From an uncultured Gammaproteobacteria bacterium (GTDB lineage Bacteria > Pseudomonadota > Gammaproteobacteria > Steroidobacterales > Steroidobacteraceae), in assembly GCA_963844595.1 (NCBI GenBank), contig CAWJOW010000004.1, forward strand, positions 480,157-544,156: a stretch of 64,000 nucleotides of DNA. Reading direction: 5' to 3'. Both the position numbers and the translations under genes were made by a program. The stretch's first letter is position 1; every line of letters begins with the position of its first letter. The notes below the pieces were generated by a model. It was not told where the DNA came from. It searched no databases and saw only the letters and a list, made by a program, of their open reading frames with translations. Below, piece by piece: positions 178 to 23,713 of this stretch.

Positions 178-295
178 ATGGGGGCGGTTCGCGTGGCTTG
201 CAATCCAGTCGTGCCTCGACCGGTCTACTGTACGAACCGCGGCCCGTGTACGACTCACGCGCTACAATCAGGGGCTCGCGCGGGAAATCAACGAC

Positions 296-1180
296 ATGCT
301 CACACGTCCCTCGCTCGGCTTCGGCCTCGGCCTGCGCGTCGAGCACTACGAGTCGGTGCTGGCCGACCGACCACCGGTCGATTGGTTCGAGGTGCTGACC
401 GAGAACTACCTGGTGCCGGGCGGCAAGCCGCTCGACTACCTGATGCGCATCCGCGAGCGCTACCCGGTGGCGATGCACGGGGTGTCGCTGTCGATCGGCA
501 GCAGTGCACCCCTCGATCGCGAGTACCTGAGACAGGTCGCCGCGCTCGCCGCGCGGGTGCAGCCGGAATGGATCTCCGATCACCTCTGCTGGACCGGGAT
601 CGCCGGCAGGAACACCCATGACCTGCTGCCGCTGCCGTATACCGAGGCGGCGCTCGAGCACGTCGCCGCGCGCGTGCGCCAGGTGCAGGACATCCTCGGG
701 CGGCGGATCCTGCTCGAGAATGTCTCGAGCTATGTGACGTTCCGCGATTCCGCGCTCACCGAGTGGCAGTTCCTCGCCGGCATTGCCGAGCGCGCCGACT
801 GCCTGATCCTGCTCGACGTCAACAACATCTACGTGAGCGCGGTGAACCACGAGTTCGACCCGTTCGAGTACCTGAACGCAATACCCCCCGCGCGCGTGCA
901 GCAGATCCACCTGGCCGGCCACGAAGATCACGGCAGCTATCTGGTCGACACCCACGACACCGCAGTGTGCGACCCGGTCTGGGAGCTCTATGCGGCCGCA
1001 CTCCGGCGCTGCGGCCCGGTGAGCACCATGATCGAGCGCGACGATCACATCCCGCCGCTCGCGGAGCTCTGCGCCGAGCTCGCGCAGGCACGCGCGGTTG
1101 CACGCCGCGCGCAGGATGCGGTCGCGGGCGAGCGTCACGCCGCGCGGCCCGCGCCGTCCTCCACCGTCGCAGCGCCATGA
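296..1180 (+). CDS. DUF692 / MNIO (multinuclear non-heme iron oxidase, MbnB/BufB/HvfB-like) family protein
   Basis: The translation [18 protein letters not shown]...WFEVLTENY...HGVSLSIGS...ISDHLCW...ENVSSY...[10 protein letters not shown]...IHLAGH...ERDD is the typical UPF0276/DUF692 TIM-barrel motif string. I chose the ATG at 296 because upstream residues of the track ORF are non-homologous. The stop overlaps the next gene start (ATGA). Confidence 0.85.
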
Positions 1181-2037: not shown

Positions 2038-3417
2038 ATGTCACCGCTGAGCTACGGCAACGTGCTGGAGATGATCGGCCACACGCCGCTCATGGCTGTC
2101 CGCCATCTGGATACCGGTCCCTGCGAGCTGTTCCTGAAGCTCGAGAACCAGAACCCGGGCGGCTCCATCAAGGACCGCATCGGGCTGTATCTGATCCAGG
2201 CCGCCGAGCGCGCCGGCAGGATCTCCCCCGGCACCATTCTGATCGAGGCCACCGCCGGCAACACCGGGCTGGGACTGGCGCTGGTTGCGGCGCAGAAGGG
2301 CTATCGTCTGGTGCTGGCGATTCCCGACAAGATGAGCCAGGAGAAGATCTTCCACCTGCGGGCGATGGGCGCCGAGGTGGTCATGACCCGCTCGGACGTG
2401 AGCAAGGGGCACCCGGAGTATTACCGCGACGTCGCCGAACGTCTCGCGCGCGAGACGCCGAACTCCTACTTCGTCAACCAGTTCGGCAATCCCGCCAACG
2501 CCCAGGCGCACGAGGAAACCACGGCTCCGGAGATCTGGGAGCAGATGGGCAAGCGGCTCGATACGGTGGTCTGCGGCGCAGGCACCGGCGGCACGCTCAC
2601 CGGGCTGTCGCAGTTCTTCACGCGCACCGCGCCGCATGTGCAAATGGTGCTGGCGGATCCGGTGGGCTCGGGACTGGCGAGCTACGCGACGACCGGCAAG
2701 CTGCCCGCGGCCATGACGCCGTGGCTGGTCGAGGGCATCGGCGGGGATTCCGTGCCGCCGGTCGCCGACTTCTCGCGCGTCAGCAGCACCTACAGCATTG
2801 CGGACGCCGAGTCGTTTCTCGCCTGCCGGGCGCTGCTCGCGAAGGAGGGGGTAATTGCCGGCACTTCCACCGGCACGCTGCTCGCGGCGGCGCTGCGCTA
2901 CTGCCGCGAGCAGCGCCAGCCGAAACGCGTCGTCACGTTCGTGTGCGACAGTGGCAACAAGTACCTCTCGAAGGTCTACAACGATTTCTGGATGCTGGAC
3001 CAGGGCTTCCTCGAGCGCCAGCGTCTCGGCGACCTGCGTGATCTGATCGTGCGGCGCTACGCGGAAGGCAATGCCGTGACGGTCAACTCCACCGAGCAGG
3101 TGCTCGCCGCCTACCGGCGCATGAAGCTCTACGACGTCTCGCAGGTGCCGGTGATGCAGGACGGCCGCATCATCGGCATCGTCGACGAGGAGGACATCCT
3201 TCTGGAGGTGTTCGCCAACCCGCAGCACTTCAGCGAGCCGGTCACCCGGGCGATGGCGAGCCACCTGGAGACCGTGCCGGTCGACGCCGGCGTGGCGCAG
3301 CTTATGGAGATATTCAAGCGCGGCATGGTGGCAATCGTCATGCACGAGAAGGAGTTCCAGGGCATCGTGACGCGCATCGATCTGCTCAACTGGCTGCGGC
3401 GCCGCATGCCCATATGA
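2038..3417 (+). CDS. cystathionine beta-synthase (PLP fold-type II domain plus C-terminal CBS pair)
   Basis: LKLENQNPGGSIKDR (PLP lysine motif), ATAGNTGLGLA and GTGGT are present. The C-terminal roughly 120 aa carry two CBS motifs (VSQVPVMQDGRIIGIVDEEDIL ... GIVTRIDLLNWL). Confidence 0.9.
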   Translation: MSPLSYGNVLEMIGHTPLMAVRHLDTGPCELFLKLENQNPGGSIKDRIGLYLIQAAERAGRISPGTILIEATAGNTGLGLALVAAQKGYRLVLAIPDKMSQEKIFHLRAMGAEVVMTRSDVSKGHPEYYRDVAERLARETPNSYFVNQFGNPANAQAHEETTAPEIWEQMGKRLDTVVCGAGTGGTLTGLSQFFTRTAPHVQMVLADPVGSGLASYATTGKLPAAMTPWLVEGIGGDSVPPVADFSRVSSTYSIADAESFLACRALLAKEGVIAGTSTGTLLAAALRYCREQRQPKRVVTFVCDSGNKYLSKVYNDFWMLDQGFLERQRLGDLRDLIVRRYAEGNAVTVNSTEQVLAAYRRMKLYDVSQVPVMQDGRIIGIVDEEDILLEVFANPQHFSEPVTRAMASHLETVPVDAGVAQLMEIFKRGMVAIVMHEKEFQGIVTRIDLLNWLRRRMPI

Positions 3418-3424
3418 GAAACGC

Positions 3425-4588
3425 ATGACCGACGAGACTGCCGCACATCGCTTTGCCACGCGCGTCATCCACGGCGGCCAGCATCCCGACCCGCTCACGG
3501 GAGCGGTGATGCCGCCGATCTACGCGACCTCGACCTACGTGCAGTCGAGCCCGGGGGTGCACCAGGGCTTTGAGTACTCGCGCACCCGCAACCCGACGCG
3601 CGACGCGCTGCAGGCGGCGGTCACCAACCTCGAAGGCGGCACCGCCGGCTTCGCGTTCGCTTCGGGAATGGCCGCGAGCGCCACGCTCCTCGAGCTCCTC
3701 GATGCCGGCGTGCACATCGTCGCGATGCACGATCTCTATGGCGGCAGCTACCGGCTGTTCGAGAACGTGCGCAGGCGCTCCGCCGGCCATCAGGTCTCAT
3801 TCGTCGATCTGTCGGACCCTGCGGCGCTCGCTGGGGCGCTGCGCCCCGAGACCCGCATGATCTGGGTCGAGACGCCGACCAACCCGCTGCTGAAGCTGGT
3901 CGATCTCGCTGCGGTCGCAGCGCTCGGGCAGCGGCACCGGCTGCTCACCGTGTGCGACAACACGTTCGCGACCCCATTCATCCAGCGCCCGCTCGAGCAC
4001 GGCTTTGACATCGTCGTGCACTCGACCACCAAGTACCTGAACGGCCACTCCGACTCGATCGGCGGCGCGGTGGCGGTGCGCGATGCGGGGCTCGCCGAAC
4101 GCATTGCTTACCTGCAGAACGCCGTCGGCGGCGTGCCGGGACCGTTCGATGCGTTCCTGACGCTGCGCGGCATCAAGACACTCGCGCTGCGCATGGAGCG
4201 GCATTGCGCGAACGCGCTCAGCGTCGCGCAGTTTCTCGAGGGGCACCCGCAGGTCGAGCGGGTGCTCTACCCCGGCCTGCCGAGCCACCCGCAGCACGCG
4301 CTCGCCCGGCGCCAGATGAGCGGCGGCTACGGCGGCATCGTCACCGCGGTGCTGCGCGGCGGGCTCGCCAGCGCGCGTCGCGCACTCGAGCGCTGCCGGT
4401 TATTCGCGCTTGCCGAGAGCTTAGGAGGCGTCGAGAGTCTGATCGAGCACCCGGGCATCATGACGCACGCCTCACTCCCCGAGGCGACCCGCAGGAGCCT
4501 GGGGATCGGCGACGGCCTCATCCGGCTCTCGGTGGGAGTGGAGGACCTCGCGGACCTGGTCGCGGACCTGCGGCACGCGCTCGGCTGA
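3425..4588 (+). CDS. cystathionine gamma-lyase / gamma-synthase family PLP enzyme (Cys/Met metabolism)
   Basis: RVIHGG...PIYATSTY...YSRTRNPTR...HSTTKYLNGHSD (PLP lysine) ...ESLGGVESLIEHP is the canonical motif series of this family. It is adjacent to CBS, which suggests reverse transsulfuration. Confidence 0.85.
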   Translation: MTDETAAHRFATRVIHGGQHPDPLTGAVMPPIYATSTYVQSSPGVHQGFEYSRTRNPTRDALQAAVTNLEGGTAGFAFASGMAASATLLELLDAGVHIVAMHDLYGGSYRLFENVRRRSAGHQVSFVDLSDPAALAGALRPETRMIWVETPTNPLLKLVDLAAVAALGQRHRLLTVCDNTFATPFIQRPLEHGFDIVVHSTTKYLNGHSDSIGGAVAVRDAGLAERIAYLQNAVGGVPGPFDAFLTLRGIKTLALRMERHCANALSVAQFLEGHPQVERVLYPGLPSHPQHALARRQMSGGYGGIVTAVLRGGLASARRALERCRLFALAESLGGVESLIEHPGIMTHASLPEATRRSLGIGDGLIRLSVGVEDLADLVADLRHALG

Positions 4589-13463: not shown

Positions 13464-14921
13464 ATGAGAATGCCGGTGCGCCACGTGCTGACCGCGGTGC
13501 TGTTCACCGGCGCCGCCGCGCTCACGGCACGCACGGCGCAAGTGCCGGCAGTCCCCGCCGGCGCCCCGCCCGCGCCTGCAGGTACCGCAGTGGTCCTCGA
13601 GATCAACGGGGCGATCGGACCTGCCACGGCGCGTTATGTCGTACGCGGGCTCGAGGCGGCGGCCCGCGACGGCGCCCGGGTCGTAGTGCTGGAAATGGAC
13701 ACGCCGGGCGGCCTCGACAGCTCGATGCGCGACATCATCCGCGCGATTCTCGCCTCGCCCGTACCGGTGGTCACTTACGTGGCGCCCTCGGGCGCGCGCG
13801 CGGCGAGCGCCGGCACCTACATTCTCTACGCGAGTCACATCGCGGCCATGGCGCCGGCGACCAATCTCGGTGCCGCTACCCCCGTACAGATCGGCGGCGA
13901 GTCGCAACCGGTTCCCGCAGCACCGCCACTGCCCACGAGCCGCCCGGACCGGCCGCCGCAAAGCGGCAACACGCCGGCCGCAGGTCCGGCGGCGAGCGGC
14001 CCGGGACCGGAGAGCGGCGAGGCGCCGGAAGGTTCGACCGGCAGCGCCATGGAGCGCAAGGTCGTCAACGATGCAGTCGCCTATATCCGCGGGCTGGCGG
14101 AGCTGCGTGGCCGCAACGCCGACTGGGCCGAGCTGGCGGTGCGCGGGGCGGCGAGCCTGCCGGCAAGCGCCGCGCTCCGGCAGCGGGTGATCGAGGTGAT
14201 TGCGCCCGATCTGCCGGCACTGCTCGCGCAGATCGACGGCCGCGTGGTGCGCATCGGCGATCGCACGGTACATCTGGAGACGCGCAACCTCACCACGGTG
14301 GTGATGAAGCCCGACTGGCGCACCCAGCTCCTCGCGGTGATCACCAATCCGACCGTCGCCTACGGGCTGATGCTGATCGGCATCTGGGGACTGCTGCTCG
14401 AGGGGTACAATCCCGGCGCGGTGCTGCCCGGGGTGGCCGGCTCGATCTGCCTGCTGGTCGCGCTGTTCGCCTTCCAGATCCTGTCGGTGAACTACGCGGG
14501 CCTGGCACTCGTGGTGCTCGGCACGGCCATGATCATCGCCGAGTTCTTCTTCCCGACGTATGGCTCGCTGGGCCTGGGGGGGCTGGTTGCGTTCGTCATC
14601 GGCTCGCTCATCCTGTTCGACAGTGACGTGCCCGGCATGAACGTCGCGCGCCCGCTGATCGCAGCGCTCGCCACCGTCGGCGGCCTGCTGATTCTCGCCA
14701 TCGTGTACCTGGCCACCCGCTCGCTGCGCCAGCCGGTCGCCACGGGCCGGGAAGGCATGATCGGGGCTGCGGCCGAGGCAGTCACCGACTTCAACGGCCG
14801 CGGCCAGGTGCGCTACGGCGGGGAGCTGTGGAACGCCCGCAGCAGCGCGGCGCTGCGCGCGGGAGATGCGGCGCGCATCGTCAAGGTGGAAGGTCTAACA
14901 TTGTGGGTCGAGCCGCAGTAA
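13464..14921 (+). CDS. NfeD family membrane-bound ClpP-class serine protease
   Basis: A signal/TM segment is followed by [16 protein letters not shown]...[16 protein letters not shown]...[21 protein letters not shown], then TM helices and a C-terminal OB-like NfeD domain. It lies upstream of a stomatin gene, the classical pairing. Confidence 0.85.
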
Positions 14922-14937
14922 CAAAGCGGGGTTTCGC

Positions 14938-15684
14938 ATGCCGTTTATCATCGCTCTCGTCATCCTGATCCTGGTGCTCCTGTTCAGCTCGCTGCACGTG
15001 CTGAACGAGTACGAGCGCGCCGTGATCTTCCAGCTCGGCCGGTTCGTCGGCATCCGCGGGCCCGGGCTCATCGTCGTCTGGCCGGTCGTGCAGCGCATGC
15101 GCAAAGTGGATCTGCGCGTCATCGTGCTGAGCGTGCCCAAGCAGGACGTGATCACGCGCGATAACGTGTCGGTGAAGGTGAATGCGGTCATCTACTTCCG
15201 CGTCGTCGATCCCGGCAAGGCCATCATCCAGGTGGCGAATGCCTTCGACGCCACCAGCCAAGTGGCGCAGACGACGCTGCGCTCGGTGGTCGGTCAGCAC
15301 GAGATGGACGACCTGCTGTCGCAGCGCGACAAGCTCAACGCCGACCTGCAGCGCATCCTCGACCAGAACACCGAGGCGTGGGGCATCAAGGTGTCGACGG
15401 TCGAGATCAAGGACGTGGATCTCGACGAGACCATGGTGCGGGCGATGGCCAAGCAGGCCGAGGCCGAGCGCACCCGCCGCGCCAAGATCATCAATGCCGA
15501 GGGGGAGAACCAGGCGGCGCAGGCGCTGGTCGAGGCGGCACAGAACCTGGCGCGCCAGCCCGCAGCGATGCAGCTGCGCTACCTGCAGACGCTCGCCGAC
15601 ATCGCCCACGAGCGCACGCAGCTGCTCGTGTTCCCGCTGCCGCTGGATCTGATAAAGCCCCTTCTCGACCGCAAAGGTGAATAG
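14938..15684 (+). CDS. SPFH/band-7 (stomatin/slipin) family protein
   Basis: [16 protein letters not shown]...GPGLIVVWP...[20 protein letters not shown] and the later [17 protein letters not shown] are canonical stomatin motifs. Confidence 0.9.
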
Positions 15685-16063
15685 CCGCCTGACGCTGGCC
15701 GTCGCGGGCGTGCTGCTCGCGCTGGGCGTGGCGCTGGGCGCCATCGGCATGCACGCGATGCGCGGGCGGCTCGCGGGTGAGTACTGGCTGCTGTACCAGA
15801 CGGCGCTCCACTACCAGTTCTACCAGGCGCCGGGGCTGCTGGGTGTGGGGCTCGTGCTGCGCGTGCGCGACGCGCGGCTGCTGCGGCTGGCCGCGGCGCT
15901 CATCACCGCCGGGATCGTGGCGTTCTCCGGGAGTCTCTACGCAGTGGCGCTCGGCGCTCCGCGCGCGCTCGACTGGCTGCCCCCGGTCGGCGGGTTGCTG
16001 CTGGTGGCCGGGTGGCTGGTGTTTGCGCTGGGTGTCTGGCGTCATTGGGAGAGGCAGGAGTGA
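15677..16063 (+). CDS. DUF423 (YgdD-like) small membrane protein
   Basis: It has four predicted TM helices and GAIGMHA...[16 protein letters not shown]...[11 protein letters not shown]. The start is GTG and overlaps the stomatin stop. Confidence 0.7.
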
Positions 16064-16068
16064 ACGAT

Positions 16069-18126
16069 ATGCCAGGAAGGGTCGTTGCGGGCGCGATCGC
16101 GACGCTGACGGTGCTGGCCGCCGCCGGAACCCCCGGGGCGGTAGCGGTACCGGCGGCTTCGAGTCCCACGCACGCGCAGATCGGCGATTTCGGCATCGAT
16201 CTCGCCGCGCGCGACCTGAGCGTCAGGCCGGGCGACGACTTCTACCGGTACGCCAATGGCCACTGGCTCGACACCCACCGCATTCCGCCCGACCGCACGT
16301 CATGGGGCTCATTCCCGGAACTCCAGGAGCGCACCGAAGCGCAGCTGCGCGAGATCATCGAAGCGCTGCCACCCGATGCGCCGTCCGGCAGCATCGAGCA
16401 GAAGGTCGGCGACTACTACCGCGCCTATCTCGACACTGCGGCCATCGAGCAGCGCGGGCTCAAGCCCACGCAGCCGGCGCTCGAGGCAATCGCGGCGGCG
16501 CGCACCCATACGGACCTGGCACGGCTCATGGGCCGGCCCGATCTCGCGATCAAGTCGCCGCTGCGCGTGCTGATTACGCCCGACCAGAAGGACCCGGACC
16601 GCTACATCGTCGTAATCACGCAGAGCGGACTCGGCATGCCCGACCGCGATTACTACCTCAAGGACGACCCCGTGTATGCCGGGTTGCGCGCCAAGTACCA
16701 GGCGCACGTGGCACGGTTGCTCGAGCTCGCCGGCGATAGCGACTCGGCCGACGAGGCGCGCTCGATCGTCGAGCTTGAGACGCAGATCGCGCGGCTCCAC
16801 TGGCCGGCAGCCAAGCGGCGCGAGCGTGATCTGACCTACAACCTCAAGAGCCGCGCGGAGCTCGACCAGCTCGCCCCCGGTTTTGCCTGGACTGATCTGC
16901 TGGCCGCCGACGGGCTGTCCGGCCAACCGCAGTTCGTGGTGCGCGAGCTCGATGCGGTGCAAGGGCTCGAGCGGCTGTTCCTGAGCGTGCCGGTCGAGCG
17001 CTGGCGCCCCTACCTGAGGTATCACTACCTGGTAGGGGTCGCCGACGTGCTGCCGAAGGCGTTCGACGATGAGGTCTTCGACTTCTACGGACGCACCCTC
17101 AACGGCCAGCAGCAGCAGCGCGACCGCTGGAAGCGCGCCGTGGCGGCCGTCGATCGCGATCTGGGCGAGGCGGCCGGCCAGCTGTACGTGCAGCGTTATT
17201 TTCCGCCCGAGTCCAAGCGCAAGATGCTCGAGCTGGTCGAGAACCTGCGCGCCTCCTACCAGGAGCATATCCAGAATCTGCCGTGGATGACGGCGGCGAC
17301 GAAGAGGCTGGCGCTGGAGAAGCTCGCGGCGTTCCACCCGAAGATCGGCTATCCCGACAAGTGGCGTGACTATTCCGCTTTCGAGGTCCTCAAGGGTGAT
17401 GCCTTCGGCAACTCGGTGCGTGCCGCGGTGTTCGAATGGAACCGCCAGACCAAGCGCATGGGTGAGCCCACCGACCGCGGCGAATGGGGCATGACGCCGC
17501 AGACCATCAACGCCTATTACAACCCGACATTCAACGAGGTGGTGTTTCCCGCCGCGATCCTCCAGCCGCCGTTCTTCGATCCGGACGCCGACGCGGCGGT
17601 CAACTACGGCGGCATCGGCGGGGTGATCGGCCACGAGATGGGACACGGGTTCGACGATCAGGGCGCGAAGTCGGACGCGCGCGGGGTACTGCGCACCTGG
17701 TGGCTGCCCGAGGACACCGCGGCCTTCAAGGCGCGCACCGACAGCCTCGCCACGCAGTACGACGGTTACACGGTGCTGCCCGGACTCAACATCAACGGGC
17801 GGCTCACGCTCGGGGAGAACATCGGCGACCTCGGCGGTCTGTCGATCGCGTACGTCGCCTACCACCGCTCGCTCAGGGGCCACAAAGCCCGGGTGCTCGA
17901 CGGCCTGACGGGCGATCAGCGCTACTTCCTGGCCTGGGCGCAGGTGTGGCGCACGCTGACGCGCGATGAGCAGCTGCGCACCCTGGTGATGAGCAATCCG
18001 CACAGTCCGCCGCAGTTCCGTGTCAACGGCGTGGTGCGCAACATCGACGCCTGGTATCAGGCCTTCGACGTCAGGCCCGGTGACAAGCTCTATCTGCCGC
18101 CCGCGGAGCGCGTCCGCATCTGGTGA
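16069..18126 (+). CDS. M13 family zinc metallopeptidase (PepO / endothelin-converting-enzyme-like), secreted
   Basis: A signal peptide, DDFYRYANGHWL, NAYYNPTFNEVVFPAAILQPPFF, the zinc motif VIGHEMGHGFDDQG, GENIGDLGG and C-terminal PPQFRVNG...Y are present. Confidence 0.9.
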   Translation: MPGRVVAGAIATLTVLAAAGTPGAVAVPAASSPTHAQIGDFGIDLAARDLSVRPGDDFYRYANGHWLDTHRIPPDRTSWGSFPELQERTEAQLREIIEALPPDAPSGSIEQKVGDYYRAYLDTAAIEQRGLKPTQPALEAIAAARTHTDLARLMGRPDLAIKSPLRVLITPDQKDPDRYIVVITQSGLGMPDRDYYLKDDPVYAGLRAKYQAHVARLLELAGDSDSADEARSIVELETQIARLHWPAAKRRERDLTYNLKSRAELDQLAPGFAWTDLLAADGLSGQPQFVVRELDAVQGLERLFLSVPVERWRPYLRYHYLVGVADVLPKAFDDEVFDFYGRTLNGQQQQRDRWKRAVAAVDRDLGEAAGQLYVQRYFPPESKRKMLELVENLRASYQEHIQNLPWMTAATKRLALEKLAAFHPKIGYPDKWRDYSAFEVLKGDAFGNSVRAAVFEWNRQTKRMGEPTDRGEWGMTPQTINAYYNPTFNEVVFPAAILQPPFFDPDADAAVNYGGIGGVIGHEMGHGFDDQGAKSDARGVLRTWWLPEDTAAFKARTDSLATQYDGYTVLPGLNINGRLTLGENIGDLGGLSIAYVAYHRSLRGHKARVLDGLTGDQRYFLAWAQVWRTLTRDEQLRTLVMSNPHSPPQFRVNGVVRNIDAWYQAFDVRPGDKLYLPPAERVRIW

Positions 18127-20693
18127 CCCCCGGACTGCCGGTCGAGGCGGCGCTACCCGCACTGCGCGCGGCGCTCGGTGCGCGCGGCTCGGCCGTGCTC
18201 GAGGCGCCTCCGGGCGCCGGCAAGAGTACGGTCGTGCCGCTCGCACTGCTCGGCGAGGACTGGGCGGCGGGCAAGCGGTTCGTCATGCTCGAGCCGCGGC
18301 GCATCGCCGCGCGCGCTGTGGCGCGGCGCATGGCGGCGACCCTCGGTGAGGAGGTCGGCGGCACGGTCGGCTACCGTATGCGGCTTGATACGCGCGTCTC
18401 TCACGGCACGCGCCTCGAGGTCGTTACCCAGGGCGTCCTGACACGCATGCTGCAGCACGACCCGGCGCTCGAGGGGGTCGCGGCGGTGCTCTTCGACGAG
18501 TACCACGAACGCAGCCTCGAGGCGGACCTGGGTCTTGCGCTGTGCCTCGATGCACGCGCCCAGCTCGCGCCGGCTCTCAGGGTCCTCGTCATGTCAGCGA
18601 CGCTCGACGGTGCGGCCGTCGCCCGGCTCCTGGGAGGCGCACCCCTCGTGAGCGTCGCGGGCCAGAGTTTTCCGGTCGAGACGTATTACGCCGGCCGCGG
18701 CGCGCCGCTGCTTCCGGTGAGCGGCCGCGCGGGCGGGGCAGACGCGCCGGAGCAGTTCGTCGCGCGCCTCACGCGGCGCGCACTGCGCGAGGCGCCGGGC
18801 GACGTGCTGGTGTTCCTGCCGGGGGTGCGCGAGATCCGCCGCGTGCAGGCGCTGCTCGAGTCCGGGGCAGAGCCTCTGGCGCCCGACACGCAAGTACTGC
18901 CGCTGTTTGGTGACCTCACGGCCGCCGAGCAGGACGCCGCGCTGGCGCCGGCCGCCTCCGGCGCGCGCAAGATCGTGCTCGCGACCAACATCGCCGAGAC
19001 GAGCCTCACGCTGCCGGGGGTGCGCGTGGTGGTCGATTCGGGGCTGGCGCGCCGCGCGCGCTTCGACCCGGCGACCGGGATGGGGCGCCTCGAGACCGTG
19101 CGCATCTCGCGCGCGTCGGCCGAGCAGCGCCGCGGCCGCGCCGGGCGCCTCACCCCCGGGGTGTGCTATCGCGCCTGGAGCGAAGGTGCACAGGGCTCGC
19201 TCGCGCCGTTCACACCGCCTGAGATTGCGGAAGCCGACCTCGCGCCGCTCGCGCTGGACCTCGCCGAGTGGGGCGTGCGGGATGCGGAGTCGCTCGCGTG
19301 GCTCGATGCGCCGCCTGCGGCGATGCTGGCGCAGGCGCGCGAGCTCCTCATGCGGCTCGGCGCACTCGGCAGCGACGGCCGGGTCACCGCTCGCGGCCGC
19401 GGGATGGCGCGACTGCCGGTGCATCCGCGGCTCGCGCACATGCTGCTCAAAGCCTGCGATCTCGGCACCCTGCCGCTCGCCGCCCGGCTCGCCGCGCTCC
19501 TCTCCGAGCGCGACCTGCTGCGCGGTGGGGGCGGCGCCCGTGATGCGGACCTGCGCACGCGCCTCGAGCTCTTCGAGGAGCGCGGCGCGGCGCACGCCCG
19601 CGGGCGTGCCGACCGCGGGGGACTCGAGCAGGCACGGCGCGTCGCCGCGGATCTCGGGCGGCAGCTCTCCGGGGGAACGCCGCAGCGCGTACCGCGGGAG
19701 AGCGCCGCAGATCCCGGCACGCTGCTGGCATTCGCCTATCCCGACCGGATCGGACGCCGCCGCGCAGGCGGCGAGGGCCGCTTCACGCTCGCCAACGGTC
19801 GCGGCGCGGCGTTCGCCGCCCCGCAATCGCTCGCGCGGAGCGAATTCATCGTGGCCGTCGATGTGGACGACCGCGACCGGGATGCACGCATCCTGCTGGC
19901 AGCGCCTCTCGAGCGCGCGGCGTTGACGGCGCACTTCTCGGAGCGCATCCGGCAGGTCGATGCAGTGGCCTGGAGCGCACGCGAGCAGGCGGTGACTGCG
20001 CGGCGCACGCTCCTCTTCGATCAGCTGGTGCTGGAGGAGCAGCCGCTCGCGGAGCCCGAGCCGCAGGCCGTGCTGCACGCGATGCTCGCCGGCGTCGGCG
20101 AGCTCGGCATCGCGGCACTCCCCTGGGACCGGGACGCCCGTGATCTGCAGGCCCGCGTCGCGTTCCTGCGCGGCGCCGCAGTCGCGGGATCGCAGAGCCG
20201 GGGCGCGTGGCCCGATCTGACCGACGAGGCGCTCGCCGCCACGCTCGACACGTGGCTTGCGCCCTGGCTCGCCGGGGTGACACGCCGCGAGCAGCTGGCG
20301 CGCGTGCCACTGCCAAGGGCACTCGGCGCGCAGCTCAGCTTCGAGCAGCAGCGCGCGCTCGAGCGGGAGGCACCGACGCACCTGACGGTGCCGAGCGGCT
20401 CGCGCATCCGCATCGATTATCAGGGGGATGACGCCCCGGCGGTCGCAGTGCGCCTTCAGGAGGTGTTTGGGCTCGAGGCGAGCCCAAGGCTCGGACCCAA
20501 CCACGTGCCGGTTACGTTCCGGTTGCTCTCGCCGGCGCAGCGTCCGGTGCAGGTGACGCGCGACCTTGCGAGCTTCTGGCGCGGGGCCTACGCCGAGGTG
20601 CGCAGGCAGTTGCGCGGCCGCTATCCCAGGCACTACTGGCCGGAGAATCCGCTCGCCGCGCAGCCGGCACGCGGGGTACCACGCCGCCGCTGA
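18123..20693 (+). CDS. hrpB: ATP-dependent RNA helicase HrpB (DEAH box)
   Basis: Walker A PPGAGKST, DEYHERS, SATLD, TNIAETSLT..V..VVDSG, the QRRGRAGR motif and the long HrpB C-terminal domain are present. Confidence 0.9.
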   Translation: MTPGLPVEAALPALRAALGARGSAVLEAPPGAGKSTVVPLALLGEDWAAGKRFVMLEPRRIAARAVARRMAATLGEEVGGTVGYRMRLDTRVSHGTRLEVVTQGVLTRMLQHDPALEGVAAVLFDEYHERSLEADLGLALCLDARAQLAPALRVLVMSATLDGAAVARLLGGAPLVSVAGQSFPVETYYAGRGAPLLPVSGRAGGADAPEQFVARLTRRALREAPGDVLVFLPGVREIRRVQALLESGAEPLAPDTQVLPLFGDLTAAEQDAALAPAASGARKIVLATNIAETSLTLPGVRVVVDSGLARRARFDPATGMGRLETVRISRASAEQRRGRAGRLTPGVCYRAWSEGAQGSLAPFTPPEIAEADLAPLALDLAEWGVRDAESLAWLDAPPAAMLAQARELLMRLGALGSDGRVTARGRGMARLPVHPRLAHMLLKACDLGTLPLAARLAALLSERDLLRGGGGARDADLRTRLELFEERGAAHARGRADRGGLEQARRVAADLGRQLSGGTPQRVPRESAADPGTLLAFAYPDRIGRRRAGGEGRFTLANGRGAAFAAPQSLARSEFIVAVDVDDRDRDARILLAAPLERAALTAHFSERIRQVDAVAWSAREQAVTARRTLLFDQLVLEEQPLAEPEPQAVLHAMLAGVGELGIAALPWDRDARDLQARVAFLRGAAVAGSQSRGAWPDLTDEALAATLDTWLAPWLAGVTRREQLARVPLPRALGAQLSFEQQRALEREAPTHLTVPSGSRIRIDYQGDDAPAVAVRLQEVFGLEASPRLGPNHVPVTFRLLSPAQRPVQVTRDLASFWRGAYAEVRRQLRGRYPRHYWPENPLAAQPARGVPRRR

Positions 20694-20724: not shown

Positions 20725-21345
20725 ATGGTTCCGGCACTCACCGCACTCGAGACGCTGCGCGAAGGCAACCGGCGCTTCGTCGAGGACCTGCGATCGGGCG
20801 GCAGCGGCGCCGGGCGGCGCCGCGCGCTGCCCCGCGGCCAGGACCCGCTCGCCATCGTGCTCGGCTGCTCCGACGCGCGCGTGCCGGCCGAGATCGTGTT
20901 CGATCAGGGACTCGGCGACCTGTTCGTGATCCGCGTCGCAGGCAATATCGTCGCGCCGTCGCAGATCGGCAGTGTGGAGTTCGCGGCCGAGGCCTTCGGC
21001 ACGCGCCTCGTTGTGGTACTCGGGCATTCCAACTGCGGCGCAATTCACGCGACGCTCGAGCAGCTGCGCCGTCCCTCGCAGGACCAGTCGAGCAACCTGC
21101 GCTCGATCGTCAACCGTATCCGGCCGGCGGTCGAGGGCCTGCTCGATCGCGCCGAGGCGCTCGACCCGCAGACTCTGGTGAGCCGAGCCGTACGCGCCAA
21201 CATCCGCATCTCCGCCGATCACCTGAGGCACGGCTCGGAGGTGCTCGAGCAGGCGATCGAGCGCGACGGCTTGCTGGTCGTGGGCGCCGAGTACTCGCTC
21301 GACAGCGGCGTGGTGGACTTCTTCGACGGCGTGCCGCCGGGCTGA
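20725..21345 (+). CDS. beta-class carbonic anhydrase
   Basis: LLEGN-type N-terminus (LETLREGNRRF), CSDARVP, FVIRVAGN and GHSNCGA zinc-ligand motifs are present. The start was chosen at the ATG at 20725. Confidence 0.85.
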   Translation: MVPALTALETLREGNRRFVEDLRSGGSGAGRRRALPRGQDPLAIVLGCSDARVPAEIVFDQGLGDLFVIRVAGNIVAPSQIGSVEFAAEAFGTRLVVVLGHSNCGAIHATLEQLRRPSQDQSSNLRSIVNRIRPAVEGLLDRAEALDPQTLVSRAVRANIRISADHLRHGSEVLEQAIERDGLLVVGAEYSLDSGVVDFFDGVPPG

Positions 21346-21368
21346 TCGGGCCGGCAGGCAAAAGAACG

Positions 21369-21403
21369 CCCGGTGCGGTGGCTGCCGCCGACGCCGCACC
21401 GGG
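21369..21403. terminator. stem-loop between convergent genes (possible bidirectional terminator)
   Basis: CCCGGTGCGG (21369-21378) pairs with CCGCACCGGG (21394-21403). On the minus strand it is followed by CGTTCTTTTG. A second perfect hairpin, ACCGATCGA-g-TCGATCGGT (21448-21466), sits directly after the peptide gene stop. Confidence 0.45.
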
Positions 21404-21485
21404 CTGATTTGCGCGCCCGAGCGTCCCGGCGCGCCTCTTCATCAACGACCGATCGAGTCGATCGGTTTACATCCCTTGAATCGGT

Positions 21486-21764
21486 CTACTTGCCGGCGTC
21501 AGCCTTCATCTTCGTGTGCGCGGCCTGGCAGTCGCTGCGGGTCATTTCGAGGAAGCCCTTGCCCTTGCAGGAGTTCTGTCCCTTGCAGGAGTTGTGGGCG
21601 CTCTTGCAGGCCGACTGTCCCTTGCACTGGTTCACGCCGTGACAGTGGATGGTTGCCGGAGCCGCAGCCGGCTCATCGGCCGCCGCGGCCGTGCCGATGA
21701 AGCCGGCGCCGAAGAGTATGGCAGCCGCTGTCGCGAGGGCCACACCGGAGGTTTGCTTACGCAT
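21486..21764 (-). CDS. small secreted Cys-rich NxCKG-repeat protein: candidate bufferin-type (BufA2 / 6-Cys-like) RiPP metallophore precursor
   Basis: The 92-aa product is MRKQTSGVALATAAAILFGAGFIGTAAAA|DEPAAAPATIHCHGVNQCKGQSACKSAHNSCKGQNSCKGKGFLEMTRSDCQAAHTKMKADAGK. It has a Sec signal with an AxA site and 6 Cys in repeated N-x-C-K-G context. A GAGGA RBS lies 8 nt upstream of the ATG at 21764, and the gene is immediately downstream of DoxX. Confidence 0.7.
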   Translation of the reverse strand: MRKQTSGVALATAAAILFGAGFIGTAAAADEPAAAPATIHCHGVNQCKGQSACKSAHNSCKGQNSCKGKGFLEMTRSDCQAAHTKMKADAGK

Positions 21765-21847
21765 TTGGATAGTCCTCAATGAAGTGGAATGGTTATTACC
21801 GGGCATCCACCCGGTCAGATGAGGAGACCGGGCGCGCCGCTATTTTC

Positions 21848-22345
21848 TTACGTCGGCGCGTTTTCCGCACCCGGAACTTGGCCGGGCGACCTCCCTGACC
21901 GGAGGAACCAGCGCTGCAGCCAGTGGTCGACCGACAGCAGCCCGGGGCCCGCGATCGCGAGCCACAGGAACAGTGCCAGGTACTCGAACTCGTCGAAGCC
22001 GAGCAGCGTCTCGAGGGAGTCGACATCGGCCCACTTGGCCGAGCGGATTGCCACGATCATGGTGATACCGAGGGCGCCGGCCGAGACGCGCGTCAGCAGT
22101 CCGATCAGCAGGAACAGCCCCCCGAAGAACTCGATTCCTGACACCAGGGGAGCCAGCACGTGGGGCAGGGGGATGCCCCAGCCGATGAAGTTCTGGACCA
22201 CGGTCGGCAGGTCGCTGAGCTTGCCCCAGCCGCTCCACAGGAATACCCAGCCCACGGTGATGCGGGCGACGAGCGGTGCGAGCCAGCCCAGGTAACCGGC
22301 GACTCGCCGCGGCCAGTCGATCAGCCATTGCACGACGTATCTCAC
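21848..22345 (-). CDS. DoxX family membrane protein
   Basis: LAPLVARITVGWVFLWSGWGKL....GIPLPHVLAPLVSGIEFFGGLFLLIGLLTR is the DoxX signature with four TM helices. The start was assigned to the GTG at 22345, preceded by AGGAG with a 5-nt spacer. The longer track ORF runs antisense into the sigma gene. Confidence 0.8.
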   Translation of the reverse strand: MRYVVQWLIDWPRRVAGYLGWLAPLVARITVGWVFLWSGWGKLSDLPTVVQNFIGWGIPLPHVLAPLVSGIEFFGGLFLLIGLLTRVSAGALGITMIVAIRSAKWADVDSLETLLGFDEFEYLALFLWLAIAGPGLLSVDHWLQRWFLRSGRSPGQVPGAENAPT

Positions 22346-22457
22346 GAGAACTCCTGCTAATTGTGGACGTGGGCAGTCGAGCGAGCAGACCGGGCAGCTG
22401 GCCGCCTTATTGCCCGGCGGGCGCAGGCCCCGTGCGTATAATCGCCGCGGACCCGCC

Positions 22458-23039
22458 ATGCGCAATTCTCCGTCGCCATCCCCGGTCTCCTCCATCAGTG
22501 AGCGGCTCCGCGGACCGGATGCGCGCTCCGCCATGACCGAGCTGTTCGAGCCGCTGCGCCCGGACCTGCTGCGCTTCGCCCAGTGGCTGGCACGCGACCG
22601 GTCGATCGCCGAAGACATCGTGCAGGAGGCGCTGCTGCGGGCGTGGCGGTCGCGGGATGCCCTGAAGGACCCGGCGGCTGCGCGCGCCTGGCTGCTGACC
22701 ATCGTCAGGCGCGAGCACGCGCGGCTCTACGAACGCAAGCGCCTGGAGCTGGTCGCCCTCGATGATGCTCTTGAGACACCCGACAAAGCCCTGTCCGTGG
22801 AACCCGACGACGGGCTCCTCACGCTGCGGTACGCTATCATGAAGCTGCCGCTCGAGTACCGCGAGCCGCTGGTGCTGCAGGTCCTTGGCGGCTTCTCCAC
22901 GGAGGAGATCGCGCGGGAGCTCAAGCTGTCGCCGACCGCGGTGCTGACCCGCCTGTTCCGCGCCCGCAACAAACTGCGGGTCATCTGCGGCACAGCGCCA
23001 ATGCCCGGGGCCGCCGCCACGAGCGAGGAGCCGGCGTGA
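22458..23039 (+). CDS. ECF (group IV) RNA polymerase sigma-70 factor
   Basis: Region 2 (DIVQEALLRAW) and region 4 (EYREPLVLQVLGGFSTEEIARELKLSPTAVLTRLFRARNKL) are present. An alternative start is the ATG at 22533. TATAAT at 22436-22441 lies just upstream. Confidence 0.85.
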   Translation: MRNSPSPSPVSSISERLRGPDARSAMTELFEPLRPDLLRFAQWLARDRSIAEDIVQEALLRAWRSRDALKDPAAARAWLLTIVRREHARLYERKRLELVALDDALETPDKALSVEPDDGLLTLRYAIMKLPLEYREPLVLQVLGGFSTEEIARELKLSPTAVLTRLFRARNKLRVICGTAPMPGAAATSEEPA

Positions 23040-23713
23040 TCTGCGAAGATGCCCGACTGCTGATCGGGGCCACTCCCGCTGACGTGCCGGGCGAGCTCGC
23101 CGCGCACCTCGAGGGATGCGAGCAGTGCGGCGCGCTGCAGCGCGAGATTCGCAGCTTCGAGGCTGATCTGCGCCGTGCCCTGCAGGCACCGCCGGACATG
23201 AGCCGCTTCCTCAGCCGGCGGCGGCCGCCGGTCTGGCGCGGCTGGGCGCTGGCCGCGAGCGTCGTGCTCGTTACCTGCGCGGCACTCGCCGTGTGGTTGT
23301 TGGTTCCGGGCCAGACGCTGGCACACCAGGTGGTGGTGCACGTCGAGGGCGAGCCGCAGAGCTGGCTGGCCACCGAGCAGCTGAGCGCCGCGGGTATCCA
23401 ACAGGTGCTGGACAGATCCGGCGTCCGGCTCGATCTCACCTCCGGGCGCATCGTCTATGCGCAGAGCTGCTGGTTCCGTGGCCACTATGTGCCGCACCTG
23501 GTGCTGCAGACCGCCCGCGGGCCGGCCACAGTGATGCTGCTGCGACACGAGTCGGTGATGCGCCGCGAAGCCTTCAGCGAAGCGGGTATGACCGGCATCA
23601 TCGTGCCCGCTCAGCGCGGCAGCATCGCGCTGCTCACCCGCGGGGGTGGGGACCTCAGCGCTCTCGCCGGCGAGATGCAGCGCGATACGCACTGGATGCC
23701 CGAACCGCACTGA
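23036..23713 (+). CDS. anti-sigma factor (DUF3379-like; N-terminal zinc-binding anti-sigma domain, one TM)
   Basis: It has a GTGA overlap with the sigma gene. The N-terminus C..A..L......P.EL..HL..C..C is ZAS-like, followed by a TM segment (WALAASVVLVTCAALAVWLL) and a periplasmic domain. Confidence 0.65.
   Translation: MICEDARLLIGATPADVPGELAAHLEGCEQCGALQREIRSFEADLRRALQAPPDMSRFLSRRRPPVWRGWALAASVVLVTCAALAVWLLVPGQTLAHQVVVHVEGEPQSWLATEQLSAAGIQQVLDRSGVRLDLTSGRIVYAQSCWFRGHYVPHLVLQTARGPATVMLLRHESVMRREAFSEAGMTGIIVPAQRGSIALLTRGGGDLSALAGEMQRDTHWMPEPH

Follow-up and report, generated by a model that had tools for sequence, protein, structure and literature searches.

Bufferins are the largest current group of peptides modified by MNIO enzymes. 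How can such a peptide be matured when the gene for its precursor and the genes for its maturases lie apart? This question is raised by a 64-kb stretch of DNA from an uncultured Steroidobacteraceae bacterium (contig CAWJOW010000004.1; referred to below as the window, with positions counted from its first letter), in which bufA2, the gene of a small Cys-rich secreted peptide, follows a doxX gene and lies close to divergent genes for an extracytoplasmic function (ECF) sigma factor and an anti-sigma factor. Here, we show that the peptide has the conserved core of a known bufferin precursor family, that genes for the maturase BufB and its partner BufC are present in the same window without a precursor gene of their own, and that one promoter-like motif precedes both loci. 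We consider it probable that the two loci form a single bufferin-2 periplasmic metallophore system, split in two but united in the regulon of one ECF sigma factor, in which the peptide is matured in trans.

Locus A, at 21.4-23.7 kb, is made up of doxX-bufA2 and of the divergent genes for the ECF sigma factor and a membrane anti-sigma factor of the DUF3379 family. All four genes that the initial annotation had placed in 21486-23713 are present as described there, with doxX preceding the peptide gene and the peptide gene terminal in its operon:

21486-21764, minus strand: bufA2; 92 residues, with a Sec signal peptide and a 63-residue core holding six Cys; NCBIfam NF050166
21848-22345, minus strand: doxX; 165 residues, GTG start, directly upstream of bufA2 on the same strand; DoxX-family membrane protein (BufD/HvfX-like)
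22458-23039, plus strand: ECF sigma factor; 193 residues, divergent from doxX; Sigma70_r2 51 bits, Sigma70_r4_2 50 bits
23036-23713, plus strand: anti-sigma factor of the DUF3379 family, its start overlapping the sigma stop (GTGA); PF11859 78.5 bits versus a cut-off of 33.2

Is the peptide a bufferin precursor, and if so, of which kind? By inspection only, its N-terminus is of the Sec type (MRKQ, a 20-residue hydrophobic stretch and AAA/AD, in a region that is conserved in the alignment), and the mature part of 63 residues carries six Cys at positions 41, 47, 53, 60, 66 and 79, the four central ones within NQCKG, SACKS, NSCKG and NSCKG, which agrees with the N/S-x-C-K-G/S repeats reported at first. 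The same annotation had assigned the peptide to the 6-Cys class of bufferin precursors and had set it apart from the DUF2282 pattern. Both assignments are borne out: the equivalog model NF050166 (Cu_RiPP_BufA2) matches over 78 of its 79 positions (1-78) with an E of 7.3e-26, and the 90.2 bits exceed its cut-off of 60, and a scan against Pfam (E<=1), which is without a BufA2 model, gave no DUF2282 match and only a sub-threshold one to DUF7640 (17.2 bits versus 28.1). A search of a large protein collection gave 887 homologues at E<=1e-3, and in an alignment of 38 BufA2 sequences the five N-proximal Cys (C41-C66), all four CK motifs and the stretches CKGQSACK and CKGQNSCKG are invariant, while C79 is conserved in at least 90%. 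Because of these homologues and the invariant Cys and CK columns, bufA2 is a real gene and not a chance open reading frame (ORF). Judged by its sequence, the peptide is a regular member of the BufA2 family, 6-Cys class. A new or variant precursor class, as had been suggested, is ruled out by the NF050166 score and by the six-Cys/CK core, which in DoxX-linked peptides is nearly identical to that of BufA2 peptides linked to an MNIO gene.

No maturase gene adjoins bufA2, whose neighbors are doxX and a convergent carbonic anhydrase gene; to this extent the first description was correct. The absence that it implied does not hold, as the closest MNIO/DUF2063 pair, preceded by the same motif, lies in the window at 296-1959, 19.5 kb from bufA2 and on the opposite strand. 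Hidden Markov models were built from seed proteins that Pfam and NCBIfam had confirmed, and with these models all six-frame ORFs of the window and of the fetched loci were searched. The pair reads as follows:

296-1180, plus strand: bufB, MNIO (DUF692) bufferin maturase; NF050167 (MNIO_BufB) 394.4 bits versus a cut-off of 310, PF05114 381.8 bits
1177-1959, plus strand: bufC, DUF2063 / PME-type-1 partner, its start overlapping the bufB stop; PF09836 63 bits versus a cut-off of 27.2

Upstream of bufB, the region 49-295 is intergenic and holds no precursor gene (a divergent gene starts at about position 48), and 'hmmsearch --max' over every ORF of at least 25 residues in the window gave no BufA2 other than the studied peptide. 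L087, a second metagenome-assembled genome (MAG) or assembly of the same species, has the same precursor-less bufBC; its gene caller called no precursor either, and called the bufC counterpart as a 260-residue gene. The arrangement differs from the textbook bufABC(D) operon in that the precursor does not adjoin the MNIO and DUF2063 genes, which supports the earlier suggestion of a differently wired system. Since the maturase is not absent and the precursor is not new, the higher weight given to the locus in the initial annotation falls.

How is this separation distributed among relatives? One genome per species was scanned with the BufA2 alignment, and the best 80 of 566 confirmed relatives were annotated. 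MNIO and DUF2063 genes directly follow bufA2 at about 46 of these 80 loci, so that homologues of the peptide are associated with maturase genes in other genomes, a point on which the first reading had been made to depend. Another 22 loci, all from MAGs labelled Steroidobacteraceae or only Gammaproteobacteria/Proteobacteria, show the module of the window, with ECF and DUF3379 genes divergent from DoxX and BufA2 genes and usually a convergent beta-carbonic anhydrase gene after them; about 12 show neither arrangement. Two contigs (L041/L058 and L009/L025) carry the module as well as a bufA2-bufB-bufC operon, 22 and 34 kb apart and in the same relative orientation as the two loci of the window. 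The ECF-DUF3379 pair stands beside a complete (DoxX) BufA2-MNIO-DUF2063 cluster in L037, L063 and L084, and because of these unsplit versions we regard DoxX, BufA2, MNIO, DUF2063, ECF sigma and DUF3379 as one system. Maturase-less pairs of BufA2 and DoxX also occur outside the Steroidobacteraceae-type module, in the reversed order BufA2 then DoxX (L079, 9323-10775, from a Reyranella MAG; L030, L040, L062); the Reyranella locus has a divergent ECF sigma gene, with no DUF3379 detected.

The history of the maturase pair can be read from 80 close relatives of the window MNIO (69-87% identity) that were obtained in a metagenome scan. In most of them bufA2 immediately precedes the MNIO gene and is itself preceded by the motif at a distance of about 150-190 nt. 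Ten relatives, and the same-species contigs L087 and L088, have sufficient upstream DNA and no bufA2, and at most of these precursor-less loci the motif lies 62-68 nt before bufB. The MNIO tree places the enzyme of the window within a clade of 10 in which every member with at least 450 nt upstream is without a precursor; this clade is nested among precursor-linked enzymes and its enzyme is intact at 80-87% identity. The tree indicates a single loss of the operon's own precursor in the lineage of the window MNIO, with an intact maturase pair retained, and Locus B (0.3-2.0 kb) would be the bufB and bufC left after this loss. Two metagenome loci, L132 (3001-3030) and L147 (5614-5649), have an intact bufB preceded only by BufA2-like fragments of 10-12 residues, which are perhaps what is left of a decaying precursor gene and thus intermediates of the inferred loss. 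The retained bufBC pair would be hard to explain unless its substrate is encoded elsewhere, and the DoxX-linked BufA2 is the sole visible candidate.

Might the substrate of BufB and BufC instead be a precursor outside the 64-kb window, for instance a BufA1 (DUF2282) or a second BufA2, with the studied peptide a secondary substrate or none? The window is only part of a genome, up to four Buf2 and five Buf1 precursor genes occur per genome (PMC12452194), and several related genomes have two BufA2 loci. However, the second BufA2 of relatives invariably adjoins bufB on its upstream side, the very position that is empty here, and the search of the window finds a single BufA2. Moreover, the genomes with the closest BufA2 (L007, L008, L010, L019 and L020), among them a long-read MAG with a 1.6-Mb contig, have one BufA2 match each within the best 80 of 566. 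An unseen precursor of this kind seems unlikely to us.

On the precursor side, a neighbor-joining tree of BufA2 has a DoxX-linked clade that consists of 22 DoxX-linked members, 5 that stand "alone" and 1 with doxX downstream, and of no MNIO-linked member. This pattern bears on whether the peptide is modified at all, as it could also be a plain disulfide- or thiol-rich periplasmic protein that works with DoxX, with bufBC serving a different substrate or none. According to the published survey of MNIO enzymes, it is possible that stand-alone precursors "are not modified" (PMC12452194), the DoxX-linked peptides form a clade of their own without an MNIO-linked member, and DoxX is dispensable for modification of bufferin 1 (PMC11626156), so its tight linkage to bufA2 might mean a different job. 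Yet the DoxX-linked clade shows no variation in the four central C-K motifs, the sites of modification in Buf2, and MNIO-linked peptides have nearly the same ones; bufBC is conserved intact in a lineage without another visible substrate, and the same promoter-like motif stands ahead of both units. We therefore consider an unmodified peptide quite improbable. Maturation in trans is favored because the six-Cys/CK core is the same, because the precursor-less MNIO clade is intact, and because BufB and BufC are both needed for modification and function of bufferin 1, whereas DoxX is not (PMC11626156).

What connects the two loci at the level of transcription? When the regions between doxX and the sigma gene of 21 orthologous loci were aligned, a conserved bipartite motif emerged, GCAAT-N15-CCGGTCT. 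With one mismatch allowed, the window contains exactly 3 matches to it, a number that none of 100 shuffles attained and that compares with 0.25 expected, and a degenerate fourth copy is located between doxX and bufA2:

200-226, plus strand: motif copy before bufB, ending 69 nt before the bufB ATG
22387-22413, minus strand: motif copy before doxX, 41 nt to the doxX GTG, conserved at this place in 22 module loci
22462-22488, plus strand: motif copy in the 5' end of the sigma gene, inside codons 2-11 of the sigma ORF (MRNSPSPSPVSS)
21825-21851, minus strand: degenerate copy GTAAG-N15-CCGGTCT in the doxX-bufA2 spacer, its -35 part overlapping the doxX stop

The aligned doxX-bufA2 spacers of 22 module loci share the block G[TC][AG]A[CG]-N15-CCGGTCT, and the degenerate copy may be a promoter of bufA2's own. 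Counted across all fetched loci without its final T (GCAAT-N15-CCGGTC), the motif occurs 114 times. It precedes bufA2-bufB in 54 instances, stands directly ahead of bufB in 9 and ahead of doxX in 22; another 23 are located at the sigma gene, and 6 are unassigned or precede other genes. BufA2 loci of Legionella, Cellvibrionaceae and Methylobacter are without the ECF/DUF3379 pair and also without the motif. In sequence and spacing the motif matches the sigmaE consensus of Neisseria (-35 GTMAGBWTT, 12-13 nt, -10 CGTCTAAH), and there sigmaE controls a DoxX/precursor/MNIO/DUF2063 operon (PMC2893595). We infer that the motif is the promoter recognized by the sigma factor encoded at the bufA2 locus. 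Because bufBC is precursor-less, the window has a single BufA2 ORF and the motif is shared, we tie bufBC and bufA2 together.

Copies of the bufB and bufA2-bufB class carry extra conserved flanks (GCAATCCAGT...CCGGTCTACTGTA/GGA), which form an imperfect inverted repeat, ATCCAGTAG-N-CTACTGGAT, across the spacer in L090 (947-985), L091 (5922-5960) and L100 (3988-4026), and only a partial one at 200-235 of the window. A second regulator may use this inverted repeat as its operator. The gammaproteobacterial MAG L037 has the motif five times (6297+, 14688+, 17156+, 18215- and 18978+; region 14688-19400), and its ECF-DUF3379 pair directly adjoins DoxX-BufA2-MNIO-DUF2063; the additional copies stand before genes for a DsbA-like protein and for a thioredoxin and an EF-hand protein that are both secreted (all Pfam-checked), and also before a 105-residue ORF without a Pfam match, which suggests a wider periplasmic thiol/metal stress regulon.

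The repeated motif could also be something other than the promoter of this sigma factor, namely the operator of another regulator or a lineage-specific repeat, in which case the loci would be co-regulated otherwise or not at all. Such a role would fit the copy inside the sigma coding sequence and the imperfect inverted repeat that flanks bufB-type copies (ATCCAGTAG...CTACTGGAT in the three loci just named). However, the motif is bipartite with a fixed 15-nt spacer, stands at promoter distance before three or four units, agrees with the Neisseria sigmaE -35/-10 consensus, and is confined to lineages that have the ECF/DUF3379 pair. These properties argue for a promoter and make the alternative doubtful.

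Across 23 orthologues the sigma copy does not vary even at synonymous sites, and it keeps an AAT codon in spite of a G+C content at third codon positions of about 85% in this genome. A start of the sigma gene further downstream, which would turn this copy into an ordinary autoregulatory promoter, was rejected because there is no conserved in-frame start and the intervening stretch behaves as coding; orthologues share the sigma start ATGCGCAAT, and their indels keep the reading frame. Possibly the copy drives a transcript of the anti-sigma gene only, or acts as an elongation block or roadblock in a negative feedback. The sigma factor itself seems to be made from a housekeeping-type promoter, because a conserved TATAAT precedes its ATG:

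22437-22442, plus strand: conserved TATAAT, sigma-70-type -10 box, 15 nt before the sigma ATG

All 21 intergenic regions of the alignment have TATAAT(C). Of 22 loci that were checked, 21 have the box at a distance of 14-26 nt from the sigma ATG, and only L016 is without it. The sigma gene has a very short leader with no evident Shine-Dalgarno sequence; AGGAG stands ahead of the GTG start of doxX and is kept in 21 orthologous loci.

The two regulators form a pair of an ECF sigma factor and a zinc-type (ZAS-like) transmembrane anti-sigma factor, as sigma regions 2 and 4 (TIGR02937 65 bits, above cut-off) and the H-x3-C-x2-C motif are all present. This N-terminal motif of the anti-sigma factor reads Cys3/His24-x3-Cys28-x2-Cys31, and residues C3, H24, C28, C31, H102, C145, H150, H154 and H171 are invariant in 43 sequences. 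The last five belong to a periplasmic domain that accompanies a single predicted transmembrane helix (about residues 67-90), and the AlphaFold model (predicted local distance difference test score 72.7) has three cytoplasmic helices, the transmembrane helix and a 6-stranded sheet. In sequence the protein weakly resembles the RsiW anti-sigma domain (E 0.28), whereas a Pfam scan returned DUF3379 only, with no match to NrsF (the multi-pass family PF06532). Matches listed in a homologue search were all close relatives with at least 56% identity, and a literature search for DUF3379 found nothing related.

How might the split system work? The steps that we propose start from the genes that are present, their split arrangement, the motif common to both loci and the conserved core, complemented with published work on Caulobacter, Neisseria and Haemophilus (PMC11626156, PMC2893595, PMC7907618, PMC13097082). 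Envelope stress, most likely copper or oxidative/thiol stress, would inactivate the DUF3379 anti-sigma factor and free the sigma factor, which would then transcribe from GCAAT-N15-CCGGTCT before bufBC and doxX and from the degenerate copy directly before bufA2. In the cytoplasm, BufB and BufC would turn the four central Cys of the BufA2 pre-peptide into 5-thiooxazoles, after which Sec would export the peptide and the signal peptide would be removed. Cys-I and Cys-VI would form a disulfide, the mature peptide would buffer Cu in the periplasm, and DoxX may be an accessory membrane redox protein. Both the formation of 5-thiooxazoles and the binding of Cu are thus predicted for the BufA2 of the window.

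Several points weigh against this reading. Modification in trans is itself a deduction, the inducing signal is guessed from other systems, and we viewed only 64 kb of the genome, so that a further precursor or MNIO may be encoded elsewhere. The doxX product, which matches Pfam DoxX well (73.1 bits, cut-off 23.6), scores 66.5 bits on the HvfX equivalog NF050144, below the cut-off of 80. The motif copy of the sigma gene lies inside the ORF and is thus unfit as a simple autoregulatory promoter, and the AlphaFold model of the anti-sigma factor gave no significant fold match in the PDB (best E 0.29) and no clue to a ligand. Finally, some relatives retain bufA2 beside bufB, and the DoxX-linked paralogue could have a separate role. 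In the loci surveyed, DoxX-linked BufA2 is never beside a maturase; it occurs with DoxX and mostly also with the DUF3379 anti-sigma factor. We hold it rather improbable that this BufA2 is a functionally specialized paralogue, a partner of DoxX and/or of the periplasmic domain of the anti-sigma factor in a feedback circuit. For instance, metal-loaded or oxidized bufferin may feed back on the sensor, or DoxX may redox-cycle the thiooxazole thiols; if this were true, such a paralogue and the motif in the sigma ORF would make up a feedback circuit not described for any bufferin system.

A split bufferin-2 system remains our preferred reading, and further features of the window surround its two halves. 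Beyond the bufA2 stop, where the initial annotation had mentioned two hairpins, hairpins are indeed present, and they are three in number:

21359-21466, minus strand: three stem-loops 3' of the bufA2 stop, the third (21368-21404) GC-rich and followed by GUUCUUUUG (U tract)

The RNA fold of this region has -80.3 kcal/mol (z = -3.85), and the stem-loops look like an intrinsic-terminator-like end of the doxX-bufA2 unit; a simple sigma-70/terminator scanner gave nothing useful around the bufA2 locus. In the 5' leader of bufA2, a conserved CCGGG...CCCGG hairpin (21798-21816, minus strand) lies just downstream of the degenerate promoter copy, and its first arm is also able to pair with CCGGTC of the -10 element; in a consensus fold of 17 sequences the four consensus pairs of the leader are all invariant, with no covariation. 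The beta-carbonic anhydrase gene (about 20725-21345, plus strand; Pro_CA 132 bits) is convergent to bufA2 with the terminator hairpin between both, and occupies the same position in about 20 module loci, which is probably plain synteny. On the other side, bufC is followed on the same strand by a cystathionine beta-synthase-like gene (PALP and CBS domains; 2038-3417, plus strand) and then by a cystathionine gamma-lyase-type gene (Cys_Met_Meta_PP; 3425-4588, plus strand), with no clear terminator found in the 78-nt gap between bufC and the first of them. Both also follow bufC in L087 and in 56-68 other loci, that is, in most Steroidobacteraceae-type bufB-bufC loci. They may link cysteine/sulfide metabolism to the Cys-rich peptide, or be mere synteny.

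Which known systems resemble this one? A close one is that of Caulobacter vibrioides, with buf2ABC (CCNA_02999-03001), buf1ABCD and SigF/NrsF (Leprevost et al. 2024, PMC11626156). Common to both are a six-Cys BufA2-type Sec precursor, an MNIO BufB and a DUF2063 BufC, an ECF sigma factor encoded apart from at least one operon under its known or, in the window, proposed control, and presumed 5-thiooxazoles on the four central Cys with periplasmic copper buffering. In contrast to Caulobacter, whose buf2 is without doxX, the precursor of the window is paired with doxX and lies far from bufBC, the bufBC operon has no precursor of its own, and the anti-sigma factor is a single-pass DUF3379 protein with a zinc-type motif and not an NrsF match. 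Also close are the Neisseria sigmaE-MseR operon NMB2140-2145 and the H. influenzae RpoE2/HrsE regulon with doxX-hvfABC (PMC2893595, PMC7907618, PMC11252979), which combine an ECF sigma factor and an H-x3-C-x2-C anti-sigma factor with DoxX, a Cys-rich secreted precursor, an MNIO and a DUF2063 protein. Their promoter consensus (GTAAG...CGTCTAA) is similar to our motif in sequence and spacing, and in Haemophilus the regulator and the gene cluster are at separate loci, as here. However, their precursors are not six-Cys BufA2 peptides, their products being described in the literature as EGKCG-repeat oxazolin/gonophorin peptides; their anti-sigma factors are short (67 residues in Haemophilus) and lack the transmembrane/periplasmic part of the DUF3379 type; and in both organisms the precursor remains beside the maturase.

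Stand-alone precursors have been described before. In the survey of the MNIO landscape (Leprevost et al. 2025, PMC12452194), a sizeable share of Buf1 and Buf2 precursors is unlinked to an MNIO gene, and according to the authors these may be modified by an enzyme encoded elsewhere or may be unmodified; none of 864 complete genomes with Buf_6/12Cys was without an MNIO. The window resembles these cases, with a Buf_6/12Cys gene unlinked to an MNIO in a genome that carries an MNIO and a PME-type-1 gene. The same survey reports sigma/anti-sigma (NrsF) genes in Buf1 clusters and not in Buf2 clusters. It was centered on MNIO genes with five genes on either side, and because of this range the module was out of its sight. 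Neither the DoxX-BufA2-ECF-DUF3379 module, nor precursor-less bufBC operons, nor a common promoter motif is described there. What is new here is therefore the conserved module, the precursor-less bufBC and the motif that joins both, whereas Caulobacter and Haemophilus had already provided examples of such clusters under ECF control, also at a distance.

In conclusion, these findings extend existing knowledge and overturn none of it. Whether precursors without a neighboring maturase are modified in trans or not at all is a published open question, and the window offers a clean natural test case for it, as a precursor-less maturase pair and a maturase-less precursor each follow a copy of one candidate ECF promoter. 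Dedicated ECF regulators can be part of Buf2 systems, and neighborhood surveys centered on MNIO genes miss them. The motif is useful for finding further members of the regulon, as illustrated by the DsbA-like, thioredoxin and EF-hand genes of one relative, and the locus gives the DUF3379 family its first functional context, as the membrane anti-sigma factor of a bufferin/DoxX regulon.

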